Below are positions 3,454 to 20,102 of a DNA stretch of 31,902 nt, in pieces. The notes beneath the pieces were generated by a model that saw nothing but the letters and a program-made list of their open reading frames with translations, searched no databases and was not told where the DNA came from. Both the position numbers and the translations under genes were made by a program. The stretch comes from an uncultured Anaerolineae bacterium. Its GTDB lineage: Bacteria; Chloroflexota; Anaerolineae; VGOG01. Numbering within the stretch: the stretch's first letter is position 1; each line of letters opens with the position of its first letter. The stretch is from positions 1,166 to 33,067 of the forward strand of contig CAYNWI010000001.1 in the NCBI GenBank assembly GCA_964400825.1, given 5' to 3'.

Positions 3454-3467
3454 AGGCTCTTTCGAAG

Positions 3468-3674: not shown

Positions 3675-3690
3675 TTTGGGAGGCGAAATC

Positions 3691-6600
3691 ATGTTCAAAG
3701 AAGTAGCTAGCAAAGTCAACTTTCCCGAGATGGAGGAGGGTGTCCTCCGTTTCTGGAAAGAGAACAACGTTTTCGAGAAGAGCCTGGAGATTCGCCGGGA
3801 TGCCCCTCGCTACATTTTTTACGAAGGCCCTCCCACAGCCAATGGCCTGCCTGGCATTCACCACGTGCTGGCTCGGGTGTTCAAAGATCTCTTCCCCCGC
3901 TACAGGACGATGAAGGGCTACTACGTCCTGCGAAAGGGCGGCTGGGATACCCACGGCCTGCCGGTCGAACTGGAGATCGAGAAGGAGCTGAGCCTCAACA
4001 GCAAGCAGGCCATCGAGGAGTATGGCGTGGTTGAGTTCAACGCCCACTGCCGGGAGAGCGTCTTCCGCTACGTCAGGGAGTGGGAGGAACTGACCGACCG
4101 CATCGGCTTCTGGATTGACATGGATGACCCCTATATCACCCTGAAGAACGAATACATCGAATCGGTGTGGTGGATCCTCAAGCAGTTGTGGGATAAAGAC
4201 CTCATCTACCAGGGCTATAAAGTTGTACCTTATTGCCCTCGCTGTGGCACGCCCCTCTCCTCGCACGAGCAACACTATCCCGGGGCGATGCATGAGACTG
4301 ATGACCCTTCTATCTACGTCAAGTTCCCCGTGTGGGATGAGCCTGGGACCTACTTTCTGGTTTGGACCACTACTCCCTGGACGCTGCCTGGCAACGTGGC
4401 CCTGGCCGTCCATCCCCAGATCGAGTACGTCATGGTGGAGCAGGAAAGGGAGGGCGAGAAGGAGCGGCTGATCCTGGCCCAAGAGCTGCTGGACGAGGTA
4501 CTGGATGGTCCCTACGAGGTTGTGCGAAGCGTACCAGGTAAGGAACTGCTGAAGATGCACTATCAGCCCCTGTTCACTTTTCTGCCGGTGGAGAAGGACT
4601 ATTGCTACGTGGTTCCTGGCGACTTCGTGAACACCAAGGAGGGCACGGGCGTGGTGCACATCGCACCCGCCTTCGGCGCAGAGGACCTGGAGGTGGGCCA
4701 GGAGTACGATCTGCCCGTGCTGCATACCGTTGACCTGCGCGGCGCTTTCATTGACGATGTTACCCCCTGGCGGGGACTGTTCGTCAAAGATGCTGATCCC
4801 CTGATCGTCGAGGATTTGCAGGGGCGCGGGCTGATGTACAAAGTGGGGACCTATCGCCACGTCTACCCCTTCTGCTGGCGCTGTAAGACCCCTCTTTTAT
4901 ACTACGCCAAGGCTACCTGGTACATCGAGACTACCCGCTACCGGGACGAGTTGGTGAATCTCAATCGCCAGATCAATTGGTACCCGGAGCACATCCGCGA
5001 TGGCCGCTTTGGCAACTGGCTGGAAAACAACGTGGACTGGGCCCTGGGCCGCGAGCGCTACTGGGGAACGCCTTTGCCCGTCTGGGTTTGCGAGGAATGT
5101 GGGCGGCAGGAGTGTATCGGAAGTGTCGAGGAACTGCAATCCAAGGTTTCAGGTTTCAGGTTTCAGGTTCCAGGTTCTGGTGAAAACCTGCAACCTGCAA
5201 CCTACAACCTCGAACAATTGGATCTTCACCGTCCTTACATTGACGCTGTCACCTACCGCTGCCCGGACTGCGATGGCACCATGCGGCGCGTACCTGAGGT
5301 GATAGATACCTGGTTCGACTCAGGCTCTATGCCTGTGGCTCAGTGGCACTACCCCTTCGCCAACCGGGAGATGTTCGAGGAGCAGTTCCCGGCCGATTTT
5401 ATCTGCGAGGCGGTGGACCAGACCAGAGGGTGGTTCTATAGCCTGCACGCTATCTCTACCTTGCTGTTCAACGAGCCTTGTTTCAGGAATTGCGTGTGCC
5501 TGGGTCTGATCCTGGACGCCGAGGGCGAGAAGATGTCCAAGACCAGAGGCAACGTGGTGGATCCCTGGACGGTGCTAAACGCCCACGGCGCCGATGCCCT
5601 GCGCTGGTATCTATACACCGCCACCCCGCCGGGCAACGACCGCCGCTTCTCCGTCGAGCTGGTAGGTGAGGTGATCCGCACCTTCATGCTGACCCTGTGG
5701 AACGTGTATTCCTTCTTTGTGACCTATGCCAACATTGACGGCTGGCAACCGACGCGTAGATTCGTAACCCGTGAATCCGTAGATTTGGGTATTGACGAGC
5801 CTACGAATCCCGAGGTCACGAGTCTGCCCGACCTTGACCGCTGGATCCTGTCCGAACTGCACCTGCTCGTCCAGCGCGTCACCGATGCCCTGGAAAACTA
5901 CGACGTGACCGGTGCCGCGCGGCCCTTCCAGCGCTTCGTGGATGACCTCTCCAACTGGTACGTGCGCCTCAGCCGCCGCCGCTTCTGGAAGAGCGAGGAG
6001 GACGAGGACAAGGCAGCCGCCTACTACACTCTCTACGAGTGCCTGACTACCCTGTCCAAACTGCTGGCTCCGTTCATGCCCTTCATCGCCGAGGAGATGT
6101 ACCAGAATCTGTCGAGGAGCGTTGACGCGACAGCGCCGGAAAGCGTCCATCTCTGCGGCTACCCCCAGGCCGATGTAGCTCTCATAGATGAGCAGTTGGT
6201 GGAGGATACGCGGCTGGTCATGCGTCTGGTGAGCCTGGGGCACGGAGCCCGCAACCGCGCCGGCCTCAAACTGCGGCAGCCTCTGGCCCAGGCCCTGTTC
6301 AAAGTGCGGAGCGAAAGCGAGGTCGAGTCCCTGCGCCGCCTGGCCGATCAGGTGCTGGATGAGCTTAACGTGAAAGAGTTGGTCTTCTTGGAGGACGCTG
6401 GTCAGGTGGTTGATTACCATGTAATCCCTCTGCCGCGTCTCTTGGGCAAGAAGTATGGCGCCCTGTTCCCCAAGGTTCGGGCGGCCCTGGCCGAGTTGGA
6501 CCAGGCTGAGCTGGCCCGGCGCGTGCAGGCTGGTGAGACCGTCGCGCTGGACATCGTCGGGCAGACCGTGAATCTTCTGCCGGAGGAGTTAGAGGTGCGA

Positions 6601-6948
6601 ACCGAGGCCAGAGAGGGCTACGCCGTGGCTGAGGAGGCCGGTTACCTGGCGGCCGTCAGCACTGCCCTCGATGAGCACCTGATCCGGGAGGGTCTGGCGC
6701 GGGAGCTGGTGCGCCGCATCCAGACCATGCGGAAAGAGGCCGGCTTCTGCGTCGAAGATCGCGTCGCTACCTACTACCGGCCCGGCCCGGCCCTGCGGGA
6801 GGTGTTGGAAACCCTCGGCGACTACATCCAGGGCGAGACCCTCTCCGCAGAGTTGGTCGAAGGCGCACTGCCAGATGGAGCTTATGCCCAGACCTTCGAA
6901 ATCGAGGGTGAGGAGATCACTCTGGGTCTGGTAAAGTTTGAGCTTTGA
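3691..6948 (+). CDS. ileS: Isoleucine--tRNA ligase, type 2
   Basis: FYEGPPTANGLPGIHH, GWDTHGLP, WTTTPWTLP, FICEAVDQTRGWF, KMSKT; ATG 3691 follows GGAGG; upstream Ile T-box. Confidence 0.97.
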   Translation: MFKEVASKVNFPEMEEGVLRFWKENNVFEKSLEIRRDAPRYIFYEGPPTANGLPGIHHVLARVFKDLFPRYRTMKGYYVLRKGGWDTHGLPVELEIEKELSLNSKQAIEEYGVVEFNAHCRESVFRYVREWEELTDRIGFWIDMDDPYITLKNEYIESVWWILKQLWDKDLIYQGYKVVPYCPRCGTPLSSHEQHYPGAMHETDDPSIYVKFPVWDEPGTYFLVWTTTPWTLPGNVALAVHPQIEYVMVEQEREGEKERLILAQELLDEVLDGPYEVVRSVPGKELLKMHYQPLFTFLPVEKDYCYVVPGDFVNTKEGTGVVHIAPAFGAEDLEVGQEYDLPVLHTVDLRGAFIDDVTPWRGLFVKDADPLIVEDLQGRGLMYKVGTYRHVYPFCWRCKTPLLYYAKATWYIETTRYRDELVNLNRQINWYPEHIRDGRFGNWLENNVDWALGRERYWGTPLPVWVCEECGRQECIGSVEELQSKVSGFRFQVPGSGENLQPATYNLEQLDLHRPYIDAVTYRCPDCDGTMRRVPEVIDTWFDSGSMPVAQWHYPFANREMFEEQFPADFICEAVDQTRGWFYSLHAISTLLFNEPCFRNCVCLGLILDAEGEKMSKTRGNVVDPWTVLNAHGADALRWYLYTATPPGNDRRFSVELVGEVIRTFMLTLWNVYSFFVTYANIDGWQPTRRFVTRESVDLGIDEPTNPEVTSLPDLDRWILSELHLLVQRVTDALENYDVTGAARPFQRFVDDLSNWYVRLSRRRFWKSEEDEDKAAAYYTLYECLTTLSKLLAPFMPFIAEEMYQNLSRSVDATAPESVHLCGYPQADVALIDEQLVEDTRLVMRLVSLGHGARNRAGLKLRQPLAQALFKVRSESEVESLRRLADQVLDELNVKELVFLEDAGQVVDYHVIPLPRLLGKKYGALFPKVRAALAELDQAELARRVQAGETVALDIVGQTVNLLPEELEVRTEAREGYAVAEEAGYLAAVSTALDEHLIREGLARELVRRIQTMRKEAGFCVEDRVATYYRPGPALREVLETLGDYIQGETLSAELVEGALPDGAYAQTFEIEGEEITLGLVKFEL
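5144..5215. repeat. In-frame heptamer palindrome inside ileS
   Basis: 5x AGGTT(TC/CC/CT) (5144-5178), then 4x AACCT(GC/AC/CG) (5185-5212); the arms are complementary. Confidence 0.85.
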
Positions 6949-6964
6949 GGTTTGAAGTTCAGAT
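6937..6964 (+). repeat. Heptamer tandem repeat (TTTGAGC type) containing the ileS stop
   Basis: TTTGAGC TTTGAGG TTTGAAG TTCAGAT; TGA at 6946-6948. Confidence 0.7.
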
Positions 6965-6968
6965 TGAT

Positions 6969-6997
6969 TTGCTTTTTTAGTGACAATCGAGTAAAAT
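6969..6997 (+). promoter_or_regulatory. Sigma70-type promoter
   Basis: TTGCTT (6969-6974), 17 nt, TAAAAT (6992-6997). Confidence 0.65.
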
Positions 6998-7039
6998 AGG
7001 TTCCGAGTCAGCCTGATAGTGAAATGGGAGGAGGTTGTG

Positions 7040-7417
7040 ATGGGTAGGGCTGATGAATCGTTCAGAAAACGGCTCGAAGAGGAGCGCGAACACCTCGAAG
7101 CAGATCTGGAGCGGTTAGGGGTGACGGAGCAGGACAACCCTGGCTACAGCACCCACATAGCCGACGATGCTACTGAGGTCTTGGAGAACGCCCAGAACCA
7201 CGCCTTGCGTCGTAATCTGCAGCGACTCCTGGACCAGGTGAACGATGCCCTGGCGAAATTTGATAAAGGCACCTATGGACTGTGCGAGGACTGTGGCGGT
7301 AAGATAGATCGTGCTCGTTTGAAGGCTCTTCCTTACGCTACCTTGTGCATCCAGTGTCAGAAGCAACGCGAGAGATCCGCGAGAAATCACAAGGGGAGTT
7401 TGCCTTTTGCTTCGTGA
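7040..7417 (+). CDS. TraR/DksA C4-type zinc finger protein
   Basis: Coiled coil with HIADDATE, GTYGLCEDCG...LCIQC; GGAGGAGG RBS before ATG 7040. Confidence 0.9.
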   Translation: MGRADESFRKRLEEEREHLEADLERLGVTEQDNPGYSTHIADDATEVLENAQNHALRRNLQRLLDQVNDALAKFDKGTYGLCEDCGGKIDRARLKALPYATLCIQCQKQRERSARNHKGSLPFAS

Positions 7418-7901
7418 GAATAAGTGGAGAGGGTTCCTCTTGCCAGTGGTTGCCGTCCTCACCCTGGTGCTTGACCAGATCAGCAAGCGCTTGGTGATGA
7501 CTAACTTTAGCCCGGGCGAGTCCTGGAATCCCGTGGCCGCTCTGGAGCGCTGGGTTAGCCTGACCTACGTGACGAACACGGGAGCGGTCTTTGGACTGTT
7601 TCCTGATTACGGGGGCATATTCATGGTCATCGCCGTGGTGGTGGTAGTGGTCATCGTCGTCTACTACCGCTACTTGCCGGGCAACCAGTGGTTAGTTCAG
7701 GCCAGCCTGGGCTTGCAGTTGGGCGGGGCGCTGGGCAACTTGCTGGATCGTCTGAGCCACGGTTACGTCATAGATTTCATTGACTTCAAGGTCTGGCCCG
7801 TCTTCAACGTGGCCGACAGTTCCGTCTTCGTAGGGGTGGTGATTCTGGCCTATTATCTCTTGCGTCATGGCGAGGATTGGGGATTAGAGATTAGAGATTA
7901 G
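7407..7901 (+). CDS. lspA: Signal peptidase II
   Basis: LDQISK, NTGAVFG, GALGNLLDR, VIDFI, FNVAD; transmembrane stretches. Confidence 0.95.
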   Translation: MLRENKWRGFLLPVVAVLTLVLDQISKRLVMTNFSPGESWNPVAALERWVSLTYVTNTGAVFGLFPDYGGIFMVIAVVVVVVIVVYYRYLPGNQWLVQASLGLQLGGALGNLLDRLSHGYVIDFIDFKVWPVFNVADSSVFVGVVILAYYLLRHGEDWGLEIRD

Positions 7902-7909
7902 AGACTAGA
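7875..7909 (+). repeat. Heptamer tandem repeat (GATTAGA) containing the lspA stop
   Basis: GATTGGG GATTAGA GATTAGA GATTAGA GACTAGA; TAG at 7899-7901. Confidence 0.85.
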
Positions 7910-7918
7910 GGAAGTGGG

Positions 7919-8140
7919 ATGATAAACTATGAAGTCGTCTTAATTCCAGCGGAAGAAGGTGGATACACAGTGGTGGCCCCTGCCCTTCCAGGATGCATAT
8001 CGGAGGGTGATACGGAGGAGGAGGCCTTGGAGAACATCAAGGATGCTATTCAAGGCTGGCTGCTTGTTGCGAAGAAGCATAGCCTTTACGTCCCCGACCT
8101 TGGTGAAGTCAAGATCGCCATGGTGGGAGTGCCGGCGTGA
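7919..8140 (+). CDS. hicB: HicB family antitoxin (short form)
   Basis: EEGGYTVVAPALPGCISEGDTEEEALENIKDAI. Confidence 0.9.
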   Translation: MINYEVVLIPAEEGGYTVVAPALPGCISEGDTEEEALENIKDAIQGWLLVAKKHSLYVPDLGEVKIAMVGVPA

Positions 8141-8364
8141 GCCCTAGGTTACCAGCGCTACGACCACGCAAGGTGCTGAAGGCTCTCAAGGAGGCAGGCT
8201 TTTATGAGGATCACCAAACTGGCAGCCACGTAATCTTGTATAAAGATGGGCACCCCAACCCTGTATCTGTTCCCAGGCACAACAAGGCTTTGAAGCGAGG
8301 GACACTATCTAGGATTATCAAAGATGCAGGACTAACTCCTGGGGAGTTCCTGCAATTGCTTTGA
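8137..8364 (+). CDS. hicA: HicA family mRNA interferase toxin
   Basis: KVLKALKEAGF, GSHVIL, VSVPRH, LKRGTLSRII; GTGA overlap with hicB. Confidence 0.9.
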   Translation: MSPRLPALRPRKVLKALKEAGFYEDHQTGSHVILYKDGHPNPVSVPRHNKALKRGTLSRIIKDAGLTPGEFLQLL

Positions 8365-11849: not shown

Positions 11850-13262
11850 GTGGAGCAGGAAACTTACGGCCACGACACCTTTCTTTCGCCCTTCACCTGG
11901 CGTTACGGCAGCCGGGAGATGCGAGGGGTGTGGTCGGAGGTGCACAAGCGGCGGCTGTGGCGGCGGGTCTGGGTGGCCCTGGCGGAGGCCGAGCACGAAG
12001 CGGGGCTGGTTAGTGAGGCGGAGCTGGATGACCTGAGAGCCCACCAGGACGAGGTGGACATCGCCCGATCCCTCGAGATCGAGGCGGAGATCGGCCACGA
12101 CAAGATGGCCGAGATTAGAGCCTACGCTGAGCAGTGCCCGATTGGCGGGGGCAAAATCCACCTGGGGGCTACCAGCGCGGACGTGGAAGATAACGCTGAC
12201 ATCCTGCGCATCAAGGAGTCCCTACATCTGATCCGCAAGCGCCTGCTGGGTCTTCTCGAAGCTTTCGCCACCCAGATCGAACGCTGTCAAGACCTGCCTG
12301 CTATGGGTTACACTCACCTCCAGCCCGCTGAGCCCACTACCCTGGGCTACCGCCTCTGTCAGTACGCCCAGGACTTGCTCATTGACCTCCAGGGTTTGGA
12401 TCACTTGGTGAAAAACCTCAAGGCCAAGGGGCTGAAGGGGGCGGTGGGAACTTCGACCTCCTACGCTCAGTTGCTCCAGGGCAGCGGGATGGCGCCGGCC
12501 GAGCTGGAACAATTGGTCATGGAAAAGCTGGGGCTGGAGGCCGTGCCCGTATCCACTCAGGTTTACCCCCGCAAGCAGGATTTCCTCGTCCTGACCACTC
12601 TGGCCTCGATAGCTCAATCCCTGCACCGATTCGCCTTCGACCTGCGAGTGTTGCACGCCGCACCCTTCGGGGAGTTGAGCGAGCCCTTTGGAGCCAGTCA
12701 GGTGGGCTCCTCCGCCATGCCCTTCAAGCGCAACCCGGTTACTGCTGAGAAGGTCTGCTCGCTGGCTCGTTATCTCAGTACCTTGCCCAAGGTGGCCTGG
12801 GACAACGCGGCCGTCTCTCTCCTGGAACGCACCCTGGACGACTCGGCCAACCGCAGGGTGATCCTTCCTGAGACATTCCTGGCCCTGGACGAAATGCTCA
12901 TCTGCGCCAGGCGCGTTGTCACGGACCTGGTTGTTCACGAGGGGACTATCGAGCGTAATCTGTCCACCTACGGCGTCTTCGCGGCCACCGAGGTGCTGCT
13001 TATGGAGCTGGTCAAGGCCGGCGCCGACCGCCAGGAGATGCACGAGCGCATCCGCCAGCACACCATGGCTGCCTGGGATGCCATTCAGAGGGGCGAGGAG
13101 AACCCCCTGATAGAGCGGCTGAGCAGCGACAGCGACCTCCTCGCTTTCCTGCCCGTCGGGAGGGTGAGGGAACTCCTAGATGTCGTCAACATCGTTGGCG
13201 ATGCCCCCGCCAGGTGCGCGGAGTTTCTGCGTCTTCTGCGAACGCACCTGGCTGAAACCTAG
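11850..13262 (+). CDS. purB: Adenylosuccinate lyase
   Basis: SPFTWRYGS, IHLGATS, MGYTHLQPA, SSAMPFKRNP; start placed at GTG 11850 (the longer ORF runs through the REP). Confidence 0.93.
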   Translation: MEQETYGHDTFLSPFTWRYGSREMRGVWSEVHKRRLWRRVWVALAEAEHEAGLVSEAELDDLRAHQDEVDIARSLEIEAEIGHDKMAEIRAYAEQCPIGGGKIHLGATSADVEDNADILRIKESLHLIRKRLLGLLEAFATQIERCQDLPAMGYTHLQPAEPTTLGYRLCQYAQDLLIDLQGLDHLVKNLKAKGLKGAVGTSTSYAQLLQGSGMAPAELEQLVMEKLGLEAVPVSTQVYPRKQDFLVLTTLASIAQSLHRFAFDLRVLHAAPFGELSEPFGASQVGSSAMPFKRNPVTAEKVCSLARYLSTLPKVAWDNAAVSLLERTLDDSANRRVILPETFLALDEMLICARRVVTDLVVHEGTIERNLSTYGVFAATEVLLMELVKAGADRQEMHERIRQHTMAAWDAIQRGEENPLIERLSSDSDLLAFLPVGRVRELLDVVNIVGDAPARCAEFLRLLRTHLAET

Positions 13263-13277
13263 CGAGGTATAGTGCCC

Positions 13278-13961
13278 ATGAGAATCCTGGTGATTGACGA
13301 GGACGAAGAATTCTCCAAAAGCCTCCGCTATTCTCTGCAGCGGGAAGGGCATCCCGTCTTCGTTGCCCTCGATAGCTCTTCCATCCCAACCCTGGTCTGG
13401 AAACACAAGCCTGACTTGATCATCCTCGACAAAGACCTGCTGGAGATTGACGGTCTTCGCCCTTTCGCTTCCTTGCAGGAGGACGTTGACATGCCGCTCA
13501 TACTTCTCGTTGCTCACGTTAAGGAGGAGGGGCGAAGAGAAGAGGAGTTGTCAGGGGAGCGTATCAGAGCCTTCGGGCTAAAGCATCTTCGTCGTGCGGA
13601 GGCGATCCTGCGACGGTTGCGTAGGCTCTTCGAGGAAGAGAGGACTATCCTGGAGATAGGCCAGTTGACTATTGACTTTGAGAAGAAACGAGTCACTTTC
13701 TACGATAAGCCCTTGTCTTTAACCCCCATCCAATTCCATCTACTGAGCTCTTTGGCCCTCGATGCCGGCCGAGTGATGGGCTATCGGGAACTCCTGGAGA
13801 ACGTGTGGGGTTACAAAGGGGAGGACAGCGAGGCGCGGGAACTGCTCAAGGTCCACATCAACCGCATGAGGCAGAAGATGAAAGCGATAGCCGGGGGGGG
13901 AGAGAGTTATATCCAATCGGTGCGGGGCTTTGGCTATAGGTTGTCTCCCCCAGACGAATAA
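13278..13961 (+). CDS. OmpR/PhoB-family response regulator, atypical receiver
   Basis: MRILVIDED...PDLIILD receiver start; wHTH with LTPIQFHLL, LLENVWG, VHINRMRQK, IQSVRGFGYRL. Confidence 0.88.
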   Translation: MRILVIDEDEEFSKSLRYSLQREGHPVFVALDSSSIPTLVWKHKPDLIILDKDLLEIDGLRPFASLQEDVDMPLILLVAHVKEEGRREEELSGERIRAFGLKHLRRAEAILRRLRRLFEEERTILEIGQLTIDFEKKRVTFYDKPLSLTPIQFHLLSSLALDAGRVMGYRELLENVWGYKGEDSEARELLKVHINRMRQKMKAIAGGGESYIQSVRGFGYRLSPPDE

Positions 13962-13981
13962 AGGCAACAAGTTTTTGACCC

Positions 13982-14030
13982 AACAGGGAATCTCTCGGGC
14001 AATGAGAGATCCCCTGTTTGCGTTCTTTTA
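13982..14030 (+). terminator. Probable terminator hairpin after the regulator
   Basis: AACAGGGAATCTCTC/GAGAGATCCCCTGTT (14/15 paired), then a T-rich tract. Confidence 0.6.
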
Positions 14031-14114
14031 CCGATCCTTAACCAAAGTGTAACCGTTTTCTCACCAAAGATTAACTGACTTGTTACTGACATCCTGGCGA
14101 ATTTAGGTTATAAT
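14027..14114 (+). promoter_or_regulatory. Promoter with six 11-bp-phased direct repeats (OmpR/PhoB-type operator array)
   Basis: TTTACC 14027, TTAACC 14038, GTAACC 14049, CTCACC 14060, TTAACT 14071, GTTACT 14082; CTGACA (14086-14091), 17 nt, TATAAT (14109-14114). Confidence 0.75.
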
Positions 14115-14149
14115 TGATGACAATCATGTTTGAGGAAGGAGGTATTAAA

Positions 14150-14335
14150 ATGGCCAAGTGCCCTGAATGCGGAAACCCAATCGAGGTGGGCAAAAGTGTG
14201 AAGCTGGGAGCGAACATCGAATGCCCAGAATGTGGCACGGTGCTGGAAGTCATCAGCCTAAGCCCCCCCGATCTGGACTACGCTCTTGGAGACGAGGACT
14301 GGGAAGATTGGGAGGAAGAAGAAGAAGAGGCATAA
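14150..14335 (+). CDS. LysW-like zinc-ribbon small protein with acidic tail
   Basis: CPECG...CPECG...LEVISLSPPDLD as in LysW; AAGGAGG RBS; ends DEDWEDWEEEEEEA rather than EDWGE. Confidence 0.85.
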   Translation: MAKCPECGNPIEVGKSVKLGANIECPECGTVLEVISLSPPDLDYALGDEDWEDWEEEEEEA

Positions 14336-14383
14336 CTTCCTCCGCCAGCAGGACATCCCATTCCAAAAGCACACGCGAAACAG

Positions 14384-14412
14384 AGCCCTAACCTGCTGGA
14401 CAGGTTAGGGCT
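14384..14412. repeat. 12-bp perfect inverted repeat
   Basis: AGCCCTAACCTG-CTGGA-CAGGTTAGGGCT. Confidence 0.8.
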
Positions 14413-14478
14413 TACCTCTCCCTACCCATCACAAGACCGTCAGGTCAGGCGAGAGGCGATTTAAGATCACCAGGACCG

Positions 14479-14627
14479 TTGTCAACGGCTTTTTGCCCGA
14501 AATACGTCGCCAGAATTGTCTTGGACGACCAGAACAAGAAGAAGTTGTAAAAATCACCAGCCTCCCCCTCGGTCTGGACTATACTGCCGAGAGCTGGAGT
14601 GAGGACTGGGAGAAAGAGGAGTACTGA
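14479..14627 (+). pseudogene. Decayed second LysW-like copy
   Basis: TTG 14479 frame: MSTAFCPKYVARIVLDD; other frame ending TGA 14625-14627: EEVVKITSLPLGLDYTAESWSEDWEKEEY, which parallels EVISLSPPDLDYALGDEDWEDWEEEEE. Confidence 0.6.
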
Positions 14628-14629
14628 AA

Positions 14630-15976
14630 ATGGATTCTGAAGAACCTCTTGGAGATAAGCCTCCCCCCCGTAGCCCAAATCGTCCTCCGATTTGGAAAAG
14701 CGTGGGCGAGGCGCAGTGGAATGATTGGCGGTGGCAGCTTACCCATCGCCTCAGCACAGCCGAAGCATTGGCCCAGGTTATCCACCTCACACCCGAAGAA
14801 GAGGCGGCGCTAGCTGCCCCAGGCCACTTTCGGGTTGATATCACCCCCTATTTTGCCAGCCTGATGGACCCCACCGACCCAACCTGCCCCATCCGTCGTC
14901 AGGTCGTCCCGACGGCCCATGAACTGGAACCCTTCGACCCAGCCACGGCCGACTCGTTGAACGAAGACCGCCACTCCCCCGTGCCAGGGCTGGTCCACCG
15001 CTATCCCGATCGGGTGCTGATGCTGGTCACCACCCAGTGCGCCAGCTACTGCCGCTTCTGTACCCGCAGCCGGGTGGTGGGCGACCCCACGGTCCAGTTC
15101 AGCCGCACCGATTACGATCAGCAGCTCGACTACATCGCCCGCACGCCGCAGGTGCGGGACGTGCTCCTCTCAGGGGGCGATCCTCTGACGCTGCCCCCCA
15201 GGGTACTGGAGGGTTTGCTCAGTAGCCTGCGGGCCATCCCACACGTGGAGGTCATTCGTATCGGTACCCGCGTGCCTGTCTTTCTGCCCATGCGGATTAA
15301 CGAAGAACTGACGGCCATGTTGCGGCAGTTCCACCCCCTGTGGATGAACATCCACTTCAATCACCCTAAGGAAATCACACCAGAGGTGCGCCAGGCCTGC
15401 GAGATGCTGGCCGACGCCGGCATCCCCTTGGGGTCGCAGACGGTGCTCCTGGCCGGGATCAACGACTGTCCCAACGTCATCAAGGCCCTGGTGCACGAGC
15501 TGGTCAAGATCCGCGTCCGACCCTACTATCTCTACCAGTGCGACCCGGTGCACGGCACCAGCCACCTCCGCACCCCGGTAGCCAAGGGGATCGAGATCAT
15601 CGAAGCCCTGCGGGGCCACACCAGCGGCTTCTGCATCCCCACCTACGTCATCGACGCGCCAGGTGGTGGGGGCAAAGTGCCTATCATGCCCCAGTACCTC
15701 ATCAGCCAATCGGACACACGGGTGGCGGTGCGCAACTTCGAGGGCTTCGTCAGCACCTACCCCCAGCCCACGGACTACCAGCCCCACAACCCGGCCCTTT
15801 GCGCCTATTGTCAAACGGCGCGGCCAGAGCCGGGTCAGGAAGGAGTGGAGGGGCTGCTGGCTGGTCAGGCCACGACCATCGCCCCTGAGGGCTTCGATAG
15901 GGTGCACCAGCGCCAGACCCGCATCGCCTGGCAGTCAGTCTGGCAAGTGCCGACAGTAGTCAAGGAAGTGGTCTGA
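14630..15976 (+). CDS. kamA: KamA-family radical SAM aminomutase (lysine 2,3-aminomutase-like)
   Basis: WNDWRWQL, LVHRYPDRVL, CASYCRFC, LLSGGDPL, HFNHPKE, YLYQCD, YVIDAPGGGGK (PLP lysine). Confidence 0.95.
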   Translation: MDSEEPLGDKPPPRSPNRPPIWKSVGEAQWNDWRWQLTHRLSTAEALAQVIHLTPEEEAALAAPGHFRVDITPYFASLMDPTDPTCPIRRQVVPTAHELEPFDPATADSLNEDRHSPVPGLVHRYPDRVLMLVTTQCASYCRFCTRSRVVGDPTVQFSRTDYDQQLDYIARTPQVRDVLLSGGDPLTLPPRVLEGLLSSLRAIPHVEVIRIGTRVPVFLPMRINEELTAMLRQFHPLWMNIHFNHPKEITPEVRQACEMLADAGIPLGSQTVLLAGINDCPNVIKALVHELVKIRVRPYYLYQCDPVHGTSHLRTPVAKGIEIIEALRGHTSGFCIPTYVIDAPGGGGKVPIMPQYLISQSDTRVAVRNFEGFVSTYPQPTDYQPHNPALCAYCQTARPEPGQEGVEGLLAGQATTIAPEGFDRVHQRQTRIAWQSVWQVPTVVKEVV

Positions 15977-17091
15977 TGCCCAGTTTCAGAGTTGCTCTGC
16001 TGTATAACCTGAAGCACAACGCCCCCCAGGAGCCCGGTGCTCCGCCCGACGCCCTGGCCGAGTATGACTCCATAGAGACTGTCCAGGCCCTTGAGGATGC
16101 TCTGCGGGCCGGTGGTCACCAGGTGATCCCTTTGGAAGGGGACAAGACGCTGTTGGACACCATTCGCCAAGCCGATCCCGACATCGCCTTCAACATCTGC
16201 GAGGGGCATCGGGGTGATGCCCGGGAATCTCAGGTGCCGGCCCTGTTGGAGATGCTGGACATCCCCTACACGGGTTCCAAAATCCTGGCTCAGGCTATCT
16301 CTCTGGACAAGGCCATAGCCAAGCGGGTGTGGCGGGACTGCGGCCTGCCCACTGCTCCTTTCCAGGTCTTCTACCACGAGCACCAGCCACTGGATGAGCA
16401 ACTGGCCTTTCCCCTGTTTGTCAAGCCGGCGCGTGAGGGCTCAGGGATGGGGATCAACGGCCACTCCGTCGTCCACGATGAGGCCGATCTGCGAGAGCAA
16501 GTGCGTTGGGTGCTCCAAACCTACCGCCAGCCGGCCCTGGTGGAAGCGCATCTACCAGGGCGGGAGTTCACTGTGGGCCTCATTGGCAACGTCATGGCAC
16601 CGGGGGAGCGGCCGTGGAAGGGCACCCTGACCGACCGAGAGTGCCGGCTGTACGACGAACGGGGCTTCCATCTTTTTCCGGTGTTGGAGATCGACTCCCA
16701 GGCGAGTGTCGGTCAGGGACTGTACAACGCAGAAGCCAAGTCCTACCACCCTGGTGAGGAAGGGGCGCCCCTCTACCTTTGCCCGGCGGACATTCCCTCG
16801 GACCTGGAGGCCGAACTGAAGCGTTTGGCCGTAGCCGCCTTTGAAGTCATTGGGGCCCTGGACGTGGCCCGGGTGGACTTCCGGCTGGGTGCTGGCGGGC
16901 AACCTTACCTCATAGAAATCAACACCCTGCCAGGCCTGAACCCGACGGTGAGCGACCTGTGCATCGTGGCCCGCGCCGAGGGGATGCATTACCCAGACCT
17001 GATCAACGAGATCCTGAACCTGGCGATAGATCGCTACGGATTGGGGTGGGATATGGGCTTCTCTTCCCGCTTCCGCCGGCCATTCCTATAG
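15976..17091 (+). CDS. Ddl-like ATP-grasp ligase 1
   Basis: FNICEG, PYTGS, LDKAIAK, FVKPAREGSGMGI, GREFTVG, ARVDFR, EINTLPGL; TGATG coupling to kamA. Confidence 0.9.
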   Translation: MPSFRVALLYNLKHNAPQEPGAPPDALAEYDSIETVQALEDALRAGGHQVIPLEGDKTLLDTIRQADPDIAFNICEGHRGDARESQVPALLEMLDIPYTGSKILAQAISLDKAIAKRVWRDCGLPTAPFQVFYHEHQPLDEQLAFPLFVKPAREGSGMGINGHSVVHDEADLREQVRWVLQTYRQPALVEAHLPGREFTVGLIGNVMAPGERPWKGTLTDRECRLYDERGFHLFPVLEIDSQASVGQGLYNAEAKSYHPGEEGAPLYLCPADIPSDLEAELKRLAVAAFEVIGALDVARVDFRLGAGGQPYLIEINTLPGLNPTVSDLCIVARAEGMHYPDLINEILNLAIDRYGLGWDMGFSSRFRRPFL

Positions 17092-17129
17092 ATAAATGGC
17101 CGAGGACGGAGAAGCCGAAGGAGGTGACG

Positions 17130-18314
17130 ATGCATTCAGACGAAAAGCCTCCTGGGGTGGTTGTGTTGTACAACCACAGCCAAGGGCTGGTGAAGGGCGA
17201 GCCTCGCGACCTGCTGGCGGAACAGGGGGTCATCGCCTGCGCCCATGCCATAGCGGAAGCGCTCCACATGGCCGGTCGGCGGGTGGAGTTGGTGCCCATC
17301 TACAGCGATGTAGAGTTGGCGCTGGCATCGTATCCTCCTCTGGACTGGGTGGTTTTCAACCTGGGGGAAGGGCTGGCGGGGCGACTCTTCGAGGAAGTAC
17401 GCATTGCCTGGGCTTTGGAGGCCATGGGCTACGCCTTTACCGGCTCGGGAGGGGATGCCATCCTCCGCTCGACCCATAAGGAACAGGCAAAGACGCTGCT
17501 GGCCGAGGCGGGCGTGCCAACTCCACCCGGGCGGATCTTTTACGACCCGGGGGAAGTGGAGGAGCACAGTGTCGCTACGCTCCCCTTCCCTCTCATAGTC
17601 AAGCCGGTAGCTGAGGACGCCAGTCTCGGAGTCAGCACAGACGCTGTGGTACACACCCCAGCAGCCTTGCAAGCGCGAGTGGCCTACGTGGTAGAGCGTT
17701 ACCGGCAGGGAGCGCTGGCGGAGCAGTTCATTGGCGGACGGGAGTTCAACATCTCCTTATGGGGCCATCTGCCACAAGTTCTGCCCCTGGCGGAGATAGA
17801 CTTCAGCGCCTTTGACGATCCTTTCCAGCGCATCGTTTCCTTTGCTGCGAAGTGGGAAGAGGACTCTTTTGCCTACAACCATACCCCTGTGGTCTGCCCG
17901 GCTAACGTGGCGTCGGTTCTCCGTGACCGCATTATTGCCACTGCCCAGCGGGCCTGGAGAGCCATCGGCTGCCGGGGCTACGCACGGGTCGACATGCGTG
18001 TGGCCGCCGATGACACGCCCTGCGTCGTGGAGGTTAACTGCAATCCCGACATCTCGCCGGATGCCGGCTTCTTCCGCGCCGCTCGTGCCGCCGGGTACAA
18101 CTACGTGGGGATGGTCACTCATATTCTGAACCTTGCCTTAAGACGGCGCAACACCTGTGATTACGAAAGCGAAAGAGCAAGATGGCTCACAAGTTCTGCA
18201 TCTAACCGCCGCCGCTGGCGTTTTCAAGCCAGACGAAGTGGCCTGCGTCCAGGAGTTATGGGACGCTTACCTGCGACAGGGCGAAGCCAGTGGCTACGTT
18301 TTTTTGGTTTATAA
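17130..18314 (+). CDS. Ddl-like ATP-grasp ligase 2 (homology ends near 18150)
   Basis: FNLGEG, FTGSG, VKPVAEDASLGV, GREFNIS, GYARVDMR, EVNCNPD; AAGGAGGTGA RBS before ATG 17130. Confidence 0.88.
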   Translation: MHSDEKPPGVVVLYNHSQGLVKGEPRDLLAEQGVIACAHAIAEALHMAGRRVELVPIYSDVELALASYPPLDWVVFNLGEGLAGRLFEEVRIAWALEAMGYAFTGSGGDAILRSTHKEQAKTLLAEAGVPTPPGRIFYDPGEVEEHSVATLPFPLIVKPVAEDASLGVSTDAVVHTPAALQARVAYVVERYRQGALAEQFIGGREFNISLWGHLPQVLPLAEIDFSAFDDPFQRIVSFAAKWEEDSFAYNHTPVVCPANVASVLRDRIIATAQRAWRAIGCRGYARVDMRVAADDTPCVVEVNCNPDISPDAGFFRAARAAGYNYVGMVTHILNLALRRRNTCDYESERARWLTSSASNRRRWRFQARRSGLRPGVMGRLPATGRSQWLRFFGL

Positions 18315-18747
18315 GAACGGGGACCGCCTCCTGGGCTACGCCTGCTTCGGGCCTCACACGCTGACCGAGGGGACCTTCGACCTGTACTGGATTGCCGTAG
18401 ACCCGGAGGCGCAGGGGCAGGGCATCGGCCACGCCCTGCTGGCGCGGGTGGAAGAGGAGGTGCAGGCCCGAGGAGGCCGGCTGCTGCTGGTAGAGACATC
18501 AGGCACCGCGGCGTATGCCCCAGCTTGTCGCTTGTATGAATCCTGTGGCTACCATTACGAAGCGGCAGTCCACGATTTTTATGCTCCTGGCGATGACCTG
18601 ATCCTCTACACCAAACCCCTCACGCCCACACCGATGATGAAAACGCCATGTTATCCCTTGATGACGCCCAACGGCACGACCCTGGCCACCTTGCGAGCGA
18701 CTCCCGTCGAGTGTACTACGTTGACCACTCGGTCTACATCCTTGTAG
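18157..18747 (+). CDS. GNAT family N-acetyltransferase (homology ends near 18620)
   Basis: GYACFGP, DLYWIAVDPEAQGQGIGHALL, VETSG...Y, DFYAPGDD. Confidence 0.88.
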   Translation: MITKAKEQDGSQVLHLTAAAGVFKPDEVACVQELWDAYLRQGEASGYVFLVYKNGDRLLGYACFGPHTLTEGTFDLYWIAVDPEAQGQGIGHALLARVEEEVQARGGRLLLVETSGTAAYAPACRLYESCGYHYEAAVHDFYAPGDDLILYTKPLTPTPMMKTPCYPLMTPNGTTLATLRATPVECTTLTTRSTSL

Positions 18748-20102
18748 GCATCAGGAGCCTCCTCGGCCAGACCAGACATGCTGCCGCCCCGCACGATGAT
18801 GCCACTTTCCGCCAACTCCCGTTGTAACTCCTGTCCCCGGATCTTCTTCCTGGCTGCGCTCCGGCTCATGACCCGCCCCGCCCCGTGGCAGGAGGTGCCA
18901 AAGGTCTTCTCCATAGCCTCAGTGGTACCCACCAGGACGTAGGAGGCCGTGCCCATGTCGCCGGGGATCAAGACTGGCTGACCCACCTCTCGATAGTCGG
19001 CAGGCACATCCTTCATCCCCGGCCCGAAGGCCCGCGTGGCCCCTTTGCGGTGGATGATCAGTTTGGTGGGTTTTCCGTCAATGGGGTACTCCTCTACCTT
19101 GGCGATGTTGTGAGCCACGTCGTAGACCAGAGTCAGCTCGCGGTCTTTGACCACGCCAGCCAGCACGTCGTCCACGACTTGGCGCACGCGGTGGGCCAGA
19201 ACCTGGCGGTTGGCCCAGGCGTAGTTGGCGGCGCAGGCCATGGCGGCGAAATAGTCGCGTCCTTCGGGCGAATCGAAGGGAGCGCAGACCAGCTCTCGGT
19301 CGGGCAATTTGATGCCGTATTTGGTCACTGCCTGCTGCAGGTCGCGCACGTAGTCGGTGCACACCTGATGGCCCAGGCCCCGCGAGCCGGTGTGGATCCA
19401 AACCACCAATTGGCCCTCGAACAGGCCGAAGGCATCCGCTATCTCCCGGTCGTAGACCTCCTCCACCTCGCCCACCTCGACGAAGTGGTTGCCTGAGCCC
19501 AGGGTTCCTAATTGATCAGCGCCTCGCTTCTTGGCCCTTGGGCTCACCACCCTTGCTTCAGCCCCAGCCAAAGCCCCCTGCTCCTCGGTGTGCTCCAGGT
19601 CGTCTTTCGTGCCGTAGCCCTGGCTCACCGCCCAGGCCGATCCCTTCTCCAAAACGTCGTCCATATCCCGGTGAGAGAGCCTGATGTCCCCGCTGCGGCC
19701 CACGCCGCTGGGCACGCCTTGGAAGAGGGCGTTGACGATCTCATCCATGATGGGCTTGACTTCTTCGGCCATGATATTGGACCTGAGAAGCCTGACGCCG
19801 CAGTTGATATCGTAACCCACAGCCCCAGGCGAGATGACCCCGTCGGAGGTTCTCAGGGGAATCACCCCACCGATGGGCGGGCCATAGCCCTGATGGATGT
19901 CGGGCATGGCCAGGGTGTACTTGACCACGCCGGGCAGCGTCGCGGTGTTGATCAACTGCTCTACGGAGCGATCCTTCAACGCTGCCTCTAAAAGCTCCTC
20001 GTCGGCGTATAGCCGAGCCGGCACCCGCATGTCGGGCCGAAAACTCTTTGGAATCTCGTAAACGTATTCCTCTACTCGCTTCATGTCCTTCTTGTCAACC
20101 AT
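18651..20102 (-). CDS. rtcB: RtcB family RNA ligase
   Basis: MPDIHQGYG, GYDINCGVR, GTLGSGNHF, HTGSRG, HNIAK, HRKGA, SCHGAGR. Confidence 0.96.
   Translation of the reverse strand: MVDKKDMKRVEEYVYEIPKSFRPDMRVPARLYADEELLEAALKDRSVEQLINTATLPGVVKYTLAMPDIHQGYGPPIGGVIPLRTSDGVISPGAVGYDINCGVRLLRSNIMAEEVKPIMDEIVNALFQGVPSGVGRSGDIRLSHRDMDDVLEKGSAWAVSQGYGTKDDLEHTEEQGALAGAEARVVSPRAKKRGADQLGTLGSGNHFVEVGEVEEVYDREIADAFGLFEGQLVVWIHTGSRGLGHQVCTDYVRDLQQAVTKYGIKLPDRELVCAPFDSPEGRDYFAAMACAANYAWANRQVLAHRVRQVVDDVLAGVVKDRELTLVYDVAHNIAKVEEYPIDGKPTKLIIHRKGATRAFGPGMKDVPADYREVGQPVLIPGDMGTASYVLVGTTEAMEKTFGTSCHGAGRVMSRSAARKKIRGQELQRELAESGIIVRGGSMSGLAEEAPDAYKDVDRVVNVVHSTGVARKVARVVPLGVIKG

Follow-up and report, generated by a model that had tools for sequence, protein, structure and literature searches.

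The window analyzed here, the whole stretch of 31,902 nucleotides from an uncultured Anaerolineae bacterium, contains an atypical orphan regulator of the OmpR/PhoB family and, downstream of it, the gene for a small LysW-like zinc-ribbon protein (Table 1). The 188-bp intergenic region between the two genes is occupied by a terminator-like hairpin, an array of six direct repeats and a core promoter. Further downstream are the genes for a lysine 2,3-aminomutase (KamA), two Ddl-type ATP-grasp ligases and a GNAT acetyltransferase.

Table 1. Features of the regulator–LysW–KamA region, with positions in the window.
Feature	Position	Strand	Basis
Orphan regulator of the OmpR/PhoB family, atypical; 227 aa, with winged-helix domain and degenerate receiver	13278..13961	+	Pfam, alignment
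Terminator-like hairpin (13982-14018) and U-rich tail, closing the regulator's transcription unit	13982..14031	+	Fold -23.7 kcal/mol, z = -2.5
Six 11-bp direct-repeat half-sites, P6-P1	14027..14092	+	Sequence reading and script, phasing statistics
-35-like hexamer CTGACA, inside the proximal half-site P1	14086..14091	+	Promoter scan; ACTGACA retained by P1 in clade A and in several further lineages
-10 hexamer TATAAT	14109..14114	+	Promoter scan
LysW-like zinc-ribbon protein, 61 aa, acidic Trp-containing tail (...DEDWEDWEEEEEEA)	14150..14335	+	Pfam Zn_ribbon_LysW (PF21344), E=7e-13
Perfect 13-bp hairpin 3' of the LysW-like gene, no U tract	14383..14413	+	Fold z = -3.8
Lysine 2,3-aminomutase, AblA type (KamA)	14630-15976	+	Pfam; AblA equivalog 539 bits, cut-off 525
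Two Ddl-type ATP-grasp ligases	15976-17091 and about 16959-18314	+	Pfam
GNAT acetyltransferase	18157-18747	+	Pfam

The regulator gene begins 16 nt downstream of purB, with which it is probably co-transcribed. The distal half-site of the array falls within the U-rich tail of the regulator terminator (first hexamer at 14027-14032). Most relatives in the closest group (clade A) also have a terminator hairpin here; two members of the group (L005 and L007) have no hairpin yet keep the array. The core promoter, CTGACA-17 nt-TATAAT, matches at 11 of 12 positions and is the best sigma-70-type match within 13100-14800. Transcription is predicted to start near 14121, and a Shine-Dalgarno sequence, AGGAGG (14138-14143), is located before the LysW-like gene.

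Contigs from lake metatranscriptomes, in which the LysW-like mRNA is present, match positions 14143-14378 exactly; one RNA contig ends at 14378, which hints weakly at a transcript end. Both the LysW-like and the KamA genes are transcribed, as seen in RNA contigs that are short and sparse. The stretch of about 300 nt between these genes contains two hairpins. The hairpin directly 3' of the LysW-like gene, conserved in two related loci (L122 and L126), is possibly a transcript end or a stabilizer that divides LysW from KamA. An Rfam search of the intergenic regions between regulator, LysW and KamA, in the window and in three related loci (L122, L126 and L069), gives no match, including none to the lysine riboswitch.

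Six half-sites in exact phase

The half-sites, from the distal P6 to the proximal P1, are TTTACCGATCC, TTAACCAAAGT, GTAACCGTTTT, CTCACCAAAGA, TTAACTGACTT and GTTACTGACAT. Their hexamers, TTTACC (starting at 14027), TTAACC (14038), GTAACC (14049), CTCACC (14060), TTAACT (14071) and GTTACT (14082), fit NTNAC(C/T), and the spacing is exactly 11 bp throughout, by reading of the sequence and by script. All six starts agree with the original prediction, as does the overlap of the last hexamer with CTGACA-17-TATAAT (14086-14114). The array, which can be written as a DNA pattern such as TTCACCAAACTNNNACCG, can be read as three 22-bp units; counted from the predicted start, they reach from about -94 to -29.

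The phasing was assessed with a test that avoids a post-hoc pattern, in which six stacked units were compared over the 188-bp intergenic region at periods 8-14 and all offsets. The stacked information at period 11 is 11.9 bits. In comparison, the maximum over all periods for shuffled sequence is 8.1 +/- 0.7 bits, and none of 2000 dinucleotide-preserving shuffles reaches 11.9 bits. A search of both strands of the window for NTNACY at periods 6-14 finds no second chain of at least three units besides the array; one other chain of at least three, with a period of 15, is present in the window.

With a 22-bp matrix for two half-sites, the array gives five overlapping hits with scores of 21.7-25.1, and the next best hit in the window scores 15.0; the maxima in shuffled sequence have a mean of 11.8 +/- 2.3 and a top value of 19.4. 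The scan finds no further site in the 32-kb window beyond the array, and no array-like site upstream of KamA, and therefore gives no evidence for autoregulation of the regulator or for a separate KamA operator. A single half-site, ATCACCAGCCT (14553-14563), is located upstream of KamA, 16 nt before TATACT (14580-14585), with the same geometry as P1. Four single matches of the ATCACCAGCCT-TATACT type are found in the window and roughly nine are expected, so that this half-site is treated as chance.

Conservation of the array and its pairing with the regulator

Related promoters were found on Anaerolineae and Chloroflexota contigs. There are 43 distinct ones, each with 4-6 half-sites (four or six in nearly all) at exact 11-bp spacing, and the half-site consensus is kTmACCrA..T. 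They belong to four clades, for which the identity of the regulator is 73-100%, 40-47%, 47-52% (C-terminal domain only) and ~31%. The order of the genes varies: the regulator may precede LysW, the two may be divergent, or the regulator may lie between two arrays. In nearly all 43 promoters of the four clades, the last 11-mer is 15-17 nt from a -10 hexamer of the form TATAAT, TATACT or TACAAT; one promoter (L008) has no -10. In clades B-D, the -35 at the position of P1 is poor, and the -10 is of the TGn extended type.

The period is specific. In 890 kb of related loci together with the window, 58 chains of at least four phased half-sites occur at period 11, as compared to 0-6 at periods 8-10 and 12-14. 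All 58 adjoin the regulator gene, an association measured mainly in one direction since all but nine of the loci were gathered via the regulator. In the close clade, the array has an identity to relatives of 0.88, as compared to 0.70 for four-fold degenerate sites and 0.33 for the 18 nt after the -10. A weight matrix built from 209 half-sites, in which positions 4-6 are fixed by the selection rule and only the other positions are independent, is informative at positions 2-8 (T, not-G, A, C, C/T, R, A) and carries almost no information at positions 9-10. The conserved positions are the ACC cores, not the A/T tracts. Two flavors of half-site, ACCG... and ACCAAAG..., alternate along the array, and in clade B they form a literal 22-bp duplication, TTCACCAAACT-CnCACCGTTTn, in two or three copies.

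The array is a conserved cis-element, real and non-random, and is conserved in sequence, phase and distance. The original prediction had named loss of the phasing in orthologous promoters as the finding that would speak against it; the exact 11-bp phase is kept in the 43 distinct promoters.

The array and the regulator also stay together when their surroundings change. The array is found beside the regulator even where LysW is absent or replaced (L008 and L045), and the promoters of lysine-rich peptides at four loci (L026, L032, L104 and L107) carry it beside the regulator as well. The LysW-like gene and the regulator are paired in four different arrangements. A reverse test that starts from LysW homologues recovers five loci with both regulator and array (L122-L125 and L130); it is a thin test, with no more than 12 proteins found through LysW and a single regulator-less lineage. 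Array and regulator are both missing in that lineage (L126-L129), the only one that has LysW-KamA-Ddl-Ddl-GNAT and no regulator.

The array is very likely the operator of the adjacent regulator (13278-13961), judging from these sequence comparisons. The two would make up a gene switch of a solid but fairly ordinary type, and their pairing is conserved in many uncultured Anaerolineae. The array has the features of OmpR/PhoB operators, namely direct repeats of ~10-11 bp with a 6-8 nt core and an A/T-rich linker, ~22-bp pairs, and a position at the -35. The tandem repeats of OmpR/PhoB type that had been proposed are borne out in the same way, as 11-bp direct repeats that overlap the -35 and consist of a conserved core and a looser linker.

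The regulator and other candidate readers of the array

The OmpR-family gene that had been placed immediately upstream of the array, ending at 13961, has both domains of the family: Trans_reg_C (E=9e-18) and Response_reg (E=3e-10), the latter over profile positions 1-83 of 111 only. In a sequence-only search of the Protein Data Bank, its best solved relatives over the full length are MtrA, PrrA, RpaA and KdpE. It reaches no NCBIfam equivalog cut-off.

The receiver domain is degenerate. In 29 of 29 family members, Val (or Ile/Ala) takes the place of the switch Thr, and Ala (once Thr) that of the Lys; the window protein has V78 and A98 at these positions. D7 is variable among family members. The phospho-acceptor D51 is kept in 26 of 29 members of clade A. 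In the clade with 37-47% identity, this position is Glu in 22, Ala in 7 and Asp in only 2 of 33 members. The gene has purB and the LysW-like gene as its neighbors, with no adjacent kinase, and the same neighbors recur in clade-A relatives; no histidine kinase is found among the scanned open reading frames of the window. Given the degenerate receiver, the protein is probably an orphan response regulator of the phosphorylation-independent type and not controlled by Asp phosphorylation. The recognition helix, EARELLKVHI, and the ACC core are invariant while the overall identity of the regulator drops to about 40%, an apparent invariance of the helix that is inflated, as the helix peptide served as a search pattern in the collection of the loci.

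The original prediction offered a PhoB-like phosphate-starvation regulator as the alternative to the adjacent gene. In that case the array would be a Pho box, read by a PhoB, SphR or PhoP-like regulator encoded elsewhere, and the cluster would be induced under phosphate limitation. The B. subtilis-type Pho repeat has the consensus TT(A/T/C)ACA, to which the half-sites show similarity. The architecture fits as well, with 11-bp direct repeats over the -35, and TTAACC, found in two half-sites of the window, resembles the cyanobacterial CTTAACCT (PMC1906773). Pho boxes in general (PhoB of E. coli, SphR of Synechocystis, PhoP of B. subtilis and Streptomyces) are 11-nt tandem direct repeats with a 7-8 nt core and a 3-4 nt A/T-rich linker, of which at least two units are needed, and they overlap or replace the -35 and bind protomers head-to-tail (PMC1906773, PMC4415409). 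However, the family consensus is kT(C/A/T)ACC; in its cross-clade form, kTCACC/GTnACC, it is neither CTTAACCT, to which the resemblance is partial, nor CTGTCAT, and TTAACC is a local variant of it. The end of the array is 16 nt from the -10, as compared to 10 nt at the Pho boxes of E. coli (PMC1906773). With the PhoB equivalog models, for which the cut-offs are 296, 270 and 471 bits, the local regulator reaches 103, 77 and 70 bits, and a PhoR-type partner is absent near it. The array accompanies this non-PhoB regulator in every arrangement and is gone where the gene is gone. The genes downstream of array promoters encode LysW-like proteins, lysine-rich peptides, AblA, ATP-grasp ligases and GNAT, and neither the genes identified in the window nor those listed for L122-L130 include a pst or pho gene. 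The phosphate reading is highly improbable, and of the two candidates in the original prediction it is the adjacent gene that comparative genomics strongly favors.

Many OmpR-family proteins read repeats of the GTnAC or TTnAC type, so that the sequence of the array alone does not identify its reader, and in Streptomyces the same sites are contested by GlnR and PhoP (PMC5826061). A different, non-adjacent OmpR-family or global regulator (for example, of nitrogen or osmotic responses) might thus read the array, the neighboring gene being linked to it by synteny only. We regard this as improbable. Array and regulator remain neighbors where the locus is inverted, where the array is doubled so as to flank the regulator, and where another gene has taken the downstream place; both have been lost in the regulator-less lineage; and a second site is not found in the 32-kb window. 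The most remote of the readings is that the repeats are no protein operator at all and represent a chance pattern, a curved UP-like element of phased A/T tracts, or replication/partition iterons. A3 and T4 tracts do recur every 11 bp, and the 22-bp units are superficially like plasmid iterons, which are read by winged-helix Rep proteins. The shuffles, the conservation of the ACC cores instead of the A/T tracts, the fixed distance to the -10 and to a small open reading frame in all clades, and the chromosomal housekeeping context (IleRS, purB, RtcB, IF-2, NusA, ProRS) led us to reject the iteron or replication-origin and curved-DNA readings.

Mode of regulation and target genes

If the adjacent regulator reads the array, its winged-helix domains would bind head-to-tail on one face of the helix, with one domain per 11-bp unit. 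Recognition of the kTmACC core would be by the recognition helix, placed in the major groove, and contacts to the A/T-rich linker would come from the wing. The alternating flavors of the half-sites suggest that each 22-bp unit accepts one dimer, and up to three dimers (six protomers) could be accommodated between about -94 and -29. The proximal protomer would occupy the -35, with a constant spacing to the -10. This position favors class-II-type activation via sigma region 4, as for PhoB and GlnR. We infer the binding to the array, its stoichiometry and, above all, the sign of the regulation. The explanation as a whole, binding of the adjacent regulator to the array with class-II-type activation of the LysW-like promoter, seems likely to us from the sequence comparisons.

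Given binding, activation is somewhat favored over repression. The fixed orientation of the array to transcription, the fixed distance to the -10 and the poor -35 in clades B-D speak for it, and this geometry is also the one from which PhoB and GlnR act as activators (PMC10235972, PMC4415409). On the other hand, the core promoter in the clade of the window is near consensus (11/12) and a TGn extended -10 is found in the remaining clades, so that RNA polymerase might need no help, and a protomer on the -35 could equally repress. The regulator might therefore oligomerize over the array, with the proximal protomer occluding CTGACA of a strong promoter until some signal releases it. The match of 11/12 unaided, the -35 contained in P1 in clade A and the ability of a TGn extended -10 to work without a -35 in clades B-D are all consistent with this, and the clade-A regulator, apparently expressed constitutively with purB, would suit a repressor that is off by default. 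We nevertheless consider repression rather unlikely. The strict orientation of the repeats and their helical phase to the -10 in four clades are more typical of stereospecific activation, six sites out to -94 exceed the needs of occlusion, and PhoB, GlnR and PhoP at such a position are usually activators (PMC10235972, PMC4415409).

The closest analogue of the regulator and its array is actinobacterial GlnR with its 22-bp a/b boxes. At the promoter of amtB in S. coelicolor, there are three 22-bp GlnR boxes, a3-b3, a1-b1 and a2-b2 (PMC5826061, PMC10235972). Like the window regulator, for which this last property is predicted from its receiver, GlnR is an orphan member of the OmpR/PhoB family with no cognate kinase and is independent of Asp phosphorylation. 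The two operators are also alike in having 22-bp units with two unlike half-sites 11 bp apart, in two to three boxes that accommodate four to six protomers (putative for the array) head-to-tail around the -35. The a-site core gTnAc of GlnR is close to GTnAC(C) of the array. In contrast, the second half-site is ACCAAAG in the array and GaAAc in the GlnR box. GlnR is a global nitrogen regulator of actinobacteria, whereas the window regulator is apparently a local, single-promoter one of Chloroflexota. GlnR-like chains match the window protein in the DNA-binding domain only, at about E=1e-8, more weakly than the full-length matches of MtrA, PrrA and RpaA, and orthology to GlnR was rejected.

In E. 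coli, OmpR binds three contiguous sites at both ompF (F1-F2-F3) and ompC (C1-C2-C3), with two protomers each. The six protomers are placed head-to-tail from roughly -100 to -40, and occupancy is hierarchical and cooperative. OmpR half-sites repeat every ~10 bp and end upstream of the -35, and OmpR is phosphorylated by EnvZ. The array shares the three contiguous two-protomer units (with putative protomers); its repeat is 11 bp and reaches to -29.

The conserved target of the array is predicted to be the LysW-like gene, joined in relatives by a lysine-rich peptide. The LysW-like protein scores 41 bits with the NCBIfam lysW model, below the cut-off of 53. It has an N-terminal CPxC...CPxC zinc ribbon and an acidic C-terminal tail with Trp, as do the LysW/ArgW carriers. 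Those carriers end in EDWGE, the terminal Glu being the attachment site. In comparison, the family of the window protein has (D/E)W(D/E) tails of variable length, ending in E, D, V, A or I. The window protein itself ends in ...EEEEEEA, and the last residue among 49 relatives includes E (14), D (10), V (7), A (5) and I (5). Other differences are that its genes often occur as tandem multiples, and that a LysX/RimK-type ligase, the partner of LysW/ArgW, is not found nearby. The enzymes that do occur in some loci are AblA, Ddl-type ATP-grasp ligases and a GNAT, and the ligases adjacent to the window gene are likewise of the Ddl type.

The original prediction took the whole LysW-like/KamA cluster as the target. 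As a conserved target, this would hold for the LysW-like gene and not for KamA, which is missing in most close relatives; there, regulator, array and LysW are followed by a convergent RtcB gene. The KamA cluster lies behind regulator, array and LysW only in the window, in three related loci (L042, L043 and L122) and in clade B, and the KamA cluster of the regulator-less lineage has no array. KamA-Ddl-Ddl-GNAT (14630..18747) may possibly be read-through members of the unit and not conserved targets, and the cluster is best regarded as an occasional passenger.

To our knowledge, almost no transcription factors of the Chloroflexota have been characterized. The locus provides a clean and directly testable candidate regulator–operator pair from an uncultured member of this phylum, with consensus, number of units, phase and distance to the -10 all defined. 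The regulators form an OmpR-type family with a degenerate receiver, in which the Asp is changed to Glu or Ala in whole clades, and which keeps one recognition helix and operator grammar at about 40% identity. The output of the proposed switch would be a small acidic LysW-like protein, often with a poly-lysine micro-peptide, and not necessarily the KamA cluster.

The pairing of the LysW-like protein with the poly-lysine micro-peptide is the part that a specialist might pursue. A broader reading, which we find doubtful, is that these genes constitute an undescribed module widespread in Anaerolineae. It would comprise the phosphorylation-independent pseudo-receiver regulator, one to five poly-acidic LysW-like proteins and a roughly 50%-lysine micro-peptide on a shared promoter, to which some lineages add the aminomutase, two Ddl ligases and GNAT. 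As parts of the same doubtful reading, the module could work by feedback, with the acidic tail acting as a DNA mimic on the basic DNA-binding domain of the regulator or being titrated by the poly-Lys peptide, and/or the LysW-like protein could be a carrier of β-lysine-derived chemistry, possibly for an osmolyte. By way of context for the osmolyte idea, one array-less copy of the cluster adjoins a gene for a TreT-like glycosyltransferase, and a salt-marsh metagenome is the source of the window.

A phased 11-bp array in the intergenic region

The six hexamers of the original prediction are all found at their positions, each 11 bp from the next, and the last of them overlaps CTGACA, with TATAAT after a spacer of 17 nt (see the table). 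This promoter is the top match of a consensus scan of positions 13100-14800, agreeing at 11 of 12 positions. Transcription is expected to start near 14121, from the position of the -10 element, which would place the array at about -94 to -29. Apart from the array, no NTNACY chain of at least three units with a period of 6-14 is found on either strand of the 31.9-kb window, and the sole other chain has a period of 15. As the NTNACY pattern was chosen after seeing the data, a pattern-free test was run, in which six units were stacked at every offset and at periods 8-14 in the 188-bp intergenic region and the column information was summed. Stacking at period 11 gives 11.9 bits, as compared to 8.1 ± 0.7 bits for the best of any period in shuffled sequences, and none of 2000 dinucleotide-preserving shuffles attains 11.9 bits. 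The phased array is confirmed and is not a chance arrangement.

Features of the array region and its neighbors in the window
Feature	Position	Remarks
6S RNA gene	513-691	70.8 bits
T-box leader	2694-2945	102.5 bits; upstream of a GNAT gene and a class I tRNA synthetase gene read as IleRS
purB (adenylosuccinate lyase equivalog)		upstream of regulator gene; gap 16 nt
OmpR-family regulator gene	13278-13961	227 aa
Hairpin ending regulator gene	13982-14018	U-rich tail overlaps distal half-site
Array	14027-14092	six half-sites in 11-bp steps
Half-site P6, TTTACC	14027	start; distal
Half-site P5, TTAACC	14038	start
Half-site P4, GTAACC	14049	start
Half-site P3, CTCACC	14060	start
Half-site P2, TTAACT	14071	start
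Half-site P1, GTTACT	14082	start; proximal
-35-like CTGACA	14086-14091	spacer 17 nt
-10 TATAAT	14109-14114
Shine-Dalgarno	14138-14143	precedes LysW-like gene
LysW-like zinc-ribbon protein, acidic tail	14150-14335	61 aa
Perfect 13-bp hairpin, no U tract	14383-14413	between LysW-like gene and KamA
Second, weak terminator-like site	14476-14488	after LysW-like gene
Lysine 2,3-aminomutase (AblA equivalog), two Ddl-type ATP-grasp ligases, GNAT		downstream of 14476-14488
GNAT gene	18157-18747 (+)	3′ end overlaps RtcB 3′ end by ~97 nt
RtcB gene	18651-20102 (-)	convergent, after GNAT gene

The rest of the window contains chromosomal housekeeping functions (T-box, IleRS, LspA, RluD, RibF, TruB, IF-2, NusA and ProRS), and no histidine kinase, pst or pho gene is present among the ORFs scanned in it. 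The scores of the T-box and the 6S RNA both exceed the Rfam gathering scores. The window sequence is also found in DNA runs labeled as salt-marsh metagenome.

Conservation of the array and its half-sites

The regulator belongs to a tight family with 66-100% identity, and the next homologs have 47% or less. An alignment of this family, used to scan genome and metagenome collections, gives 121 loci (one of them, L042, is the window's own 64-kb contig), and those with organism names are all from Anaerolineae or other Chloroflexota MAGs. In a tblastn map of these loci, a LysW-like gene accompanies the regulator, in four different arrangements. In clade A, which contains the window (regulator 73-100% identical), the order is purB, regulator and LysW, usually followed directly by the convergent RtcB gene; among the 121 loci, the KamA cluster is found within this clade only in the window, L042 and L043. 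In clade B (40-47%), regulator and LysW are followed by KamA, Ddl and/or GNAT genes. LysW and the regulator are divergent in clade C (47-52%, for the C-terminal domain only) and in clade D (~31%). In relatives lacking the GNAT gene, the tblastn match to it is the antisense of conserved RtcB sequence.

A phased array is located upstream of the LysW-like gene, on the same strand, in essentially all loci of the four clades. Clade A arrays have six units, those of clades B and C four (L068 is an exception with six), and those of clade D four or five. Over 890 kb, chains of at least four NNNAC(C/T) units number 58 at period 11 as compared to 0-6 at the other tested periods, and all 58 adjoin the regulator gene. 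Removal of duplicates leaves 43 distinct promoters, in nearly all of which the proximal 11-mer is followed, after 15-17 nt, by TATAAT, TATACT or TACAAT. Two loci (L011 and L063) are under the chain threshold and yet have GTCACC units 11 bp apart and an ACTGACA-type P1. With the window as the reference for each clade A relative, the array has an identity of 0.88, and the spacer and the -10 element have 0.81 each. The corresponding values are 0.70 for four-fold degenerate sites in the regulator gene and 0.33 for the 18 nt that follow the -10 element. The flanks in this clade have indels, such as loss of the hairpin (L005 and L007) and insertion of extra ORFs beyond the -10 element, while the array block has none except for a 1-bp slip in L122.

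The consensus of 209 half-sites is (G/T/C, never A) T (C/A/T, never G) A C C/T R A n n T, where positions 4-6 are fixed by the selection rule and only the other positions are independent evidence. Two flavors of half-site alternate, ACCG… and ACCAAAG/C…. Clade B has a near-perfect 22-bp tandem duplication, TTCACCAAACT-CnCACCGTTTn. Units P5-P2 of clade A (TTAACCAAAGT GTAACCGTTTT GTCACCAAAGA TTAACCGACTT) are recognizably P4-P1 of clade B, and the extra units of clade A are a distal one and a proximal one, GTTACTGACAT, which bears the -35-like TGACA. Operators of the OmpR/PhoB family are built of paired 11-nt direct repeats, in each of which a conserved core is joined to a loose A/T-rich linker (PMC4415409, PMC1906773). 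Judged from its sequence, the array follows this grammar.

The regulator and its possible mode of action

The array follows the neighboring regulator rather than the downstream gene. It remains beside the regulator where the LysW gene is absent (L008 and L045, the latter with a membrane protein downstream), and it is kept in L041 and L062, which encode a rubredoxin-like acidic zinc-ribbon protein. In four loci (L026, L032, L104 and L107) there is a second array across the regulator gene from the first, and a lysine-rich peptide is all that it drives. Retrieval through LysW homologs gives five further loci with regulator and array (L122-L125 and L130), as well as one lineage (L126-L129) with the order LysW-x-LysW-KamA-Ddl-Ddl-GNAT, in which regulator and array are both absent. 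The remaining protein falls to ~40% identity without any change in the recognition helix, (S/D)EARELLKVHI, although this peptide also served as a search pattern in collecting the loci; the invariant helix matches the invariant ACC core.

Between the two controllers originally proposed, these observations support the adjacent OmpR-family regulator, and the reading of the array as an OmpR-family operator stands. The suggested link to phosphate starvation does not, by the criteria of regulator identity, consensus and spacing. The 11-nt grammar is common to Pho boxes and the array, but the consensus and the spacing to the -10 element do not agree with a Pho box, and the regulator is not PhoB, with scores of 103, 77 and 70 bits against PhoB equivalog models with cut-offs of 296, 270 and 471. 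It does not reach the cut-off of any other equivalog model.

The phospho-acceptor position of the regulator is Asp51, from an alignment to MtrA. The conserved Thr and Lys are replaced by Val78 and Ala98, and these positions are hydrophobic or small in all 29 family members, among which the acidic pocket is variable. By these residues the receiver is degenerate. There is no kinase gene nearby, and the regulator is an orphan that probably acts without phosphorylation. In the 37-47% clade (homologs P0087-P0111), only 2 of 33 proteins have Asp at the phospho-acceptor position, as compared to 22 with Glu and 7 with Ala. The DNA-recognition helix is unchanged there, and the clade as a whole consists of pseudo-receiver OmpR-type regulators.

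The closest system in behavior is actinobacterial GlnR, an orphan OmpR-family regulator that works without Asp phosphorylation. It recognizes 22-bp boxes, each made of two different half-sites, a (gTnAc) and b (GaAAc), 11 bp apart, usually two boxes but three at amtB, and activates from around the -35 element (PMC5826061, PMC10235972). The present regulator is not orthologous to GlnR. The F1-F3 and C1-C3 sites of OmpR have a six-protomer layout, as proposed for the array.

In the proposed mechanism, the winged-helix domains would bind head-to-tail, one per 11-bp unit and as dimers on the 22-bp units, with up to six protomers between -94 and -29. The proximal protomer would be positioned on the -35 element, and the promoter would be activated in a class-II-type manner. 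Such activation is favored because the orientation of the repeats, their helical phase and their distance to the -10 element are fixed in the four clades, because clades B-D have a poor -35 element there, and because PhoB and GlnR activate from such a geometry. In the case of GlnR, four DNA-binding domains are arranged head-to-tail around the -35 element and contact sigma region 4 and the beta flap (PMC10235972). Repression by the regulator at the array is a serious alternative, as a near-consensus core promoter is already present in the window, and a TGn extended -10 element in the other clades. Judged from sequence, activation is only the preferred reading of the two.

In full-text literature on LysW/aminomutase/ATP-grasp/beta-lysine or on GlnR boxes, no description of this regulator-operator pair is found. 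The GlnR-box papers concern actinobacterial GlnR only, and the one paper retrieved for LysW, aminomutase, ATP-grasp and beta-lysine is, by title and abstract, apparently unrelated. What is less usual here is the module to which the array belongs, a conserved combination of pseudo-receiver regulator, acidic LysW-like protein and poly-lysine peptide.

Genes downstream of the array

In the loci compared, the LysW-like protein is the conserved output of the array promoter. The proposed target, a LysW-like/KamA cluster, is thus imprecise: the LysW-like gene is retained, while only certain lineages (the window, L122 and clade B) have KamA-Ddl-Ddl-GNAT genes joined to the module. Two hairpins separate them from LysW in the window, and no array-like site is found before them there. 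Any control of KamA by the array would need read-through. The hairpin at 14383-14413 might mark the end of a transcript or a processing site, or act as a stabilizer, and would decide whether KamA is read from the array promoter; it is kept in L126 (4309-4339) and L122 (533-563), with changes that are mostly G-U-compatible. Segments 14143-14378 and 14623-14773 are matched exactly by lake metatranscriptome contigs, and the LysW-like and KamA genes are therefore expressed in nature. These contigs show neither the start site nor LysW-KamA read-through, and none covers the regulator gene.

A lone half-site-like sequence, ATCACCAGCCT, is located 16 nt upstream of a TATACT before KamA, the two together spanning 14553-14585, in the geometry of P1. 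It is statistically indistinguishable from chance, with 4 such matches in the window and ~9 expected. A conserved element of ~50 nt (…GGGTGCAATTGCAAAGGCGTAAGTACGGGCGACGGATACC…) is present upstream of KamA in L122 (800-900) and L126 (4440-4500); the window lacks it, and Rfam gives no match. The L126 cluster (25-8261) lies directly behind a TreT-like glycosyltransferase and an amino-acid permease, as do those of L127-L129, and these neighbors hint that the aminomutase cluster belongs to compatible-solute (osmolyte) metabolism.

The canonical LysW tail ends in EDWGE. The tails here are (D/E)W(D/E) runs of variable length, ending in E, D, V, A or I, and the proteins score under the NCBIfam LysW cut-offs; for both reasons they are named LysW-like. 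In some relatives up to five tandem copies are located behind a single array promoter (L060:699-2215, L123:4001-5286, L049, L048 and L003).

In many relatives the first ORF after the promoter encodes a peptide of 23-34 residues, about half of them lysine (for example MAKKKPKKPGGKPKPKKTPAKPKKKKGE); this ORF is absent from the window. Examples such as MAKKKPKKPGGKPKPKKTPAKPKPKKGE are found in L002 (6855-6941), L006, L044, L046-L049, L056, L059, L060, L123-L125 and L130, and in some divergent loci (L026, L104 and L107) the peptide is the only product of the second array. It might act as a partner, as a substrate or as a translational sensor. The peptide is in every case either encoded beside the poly-acidic LysW-like protein or co-expressed with it.
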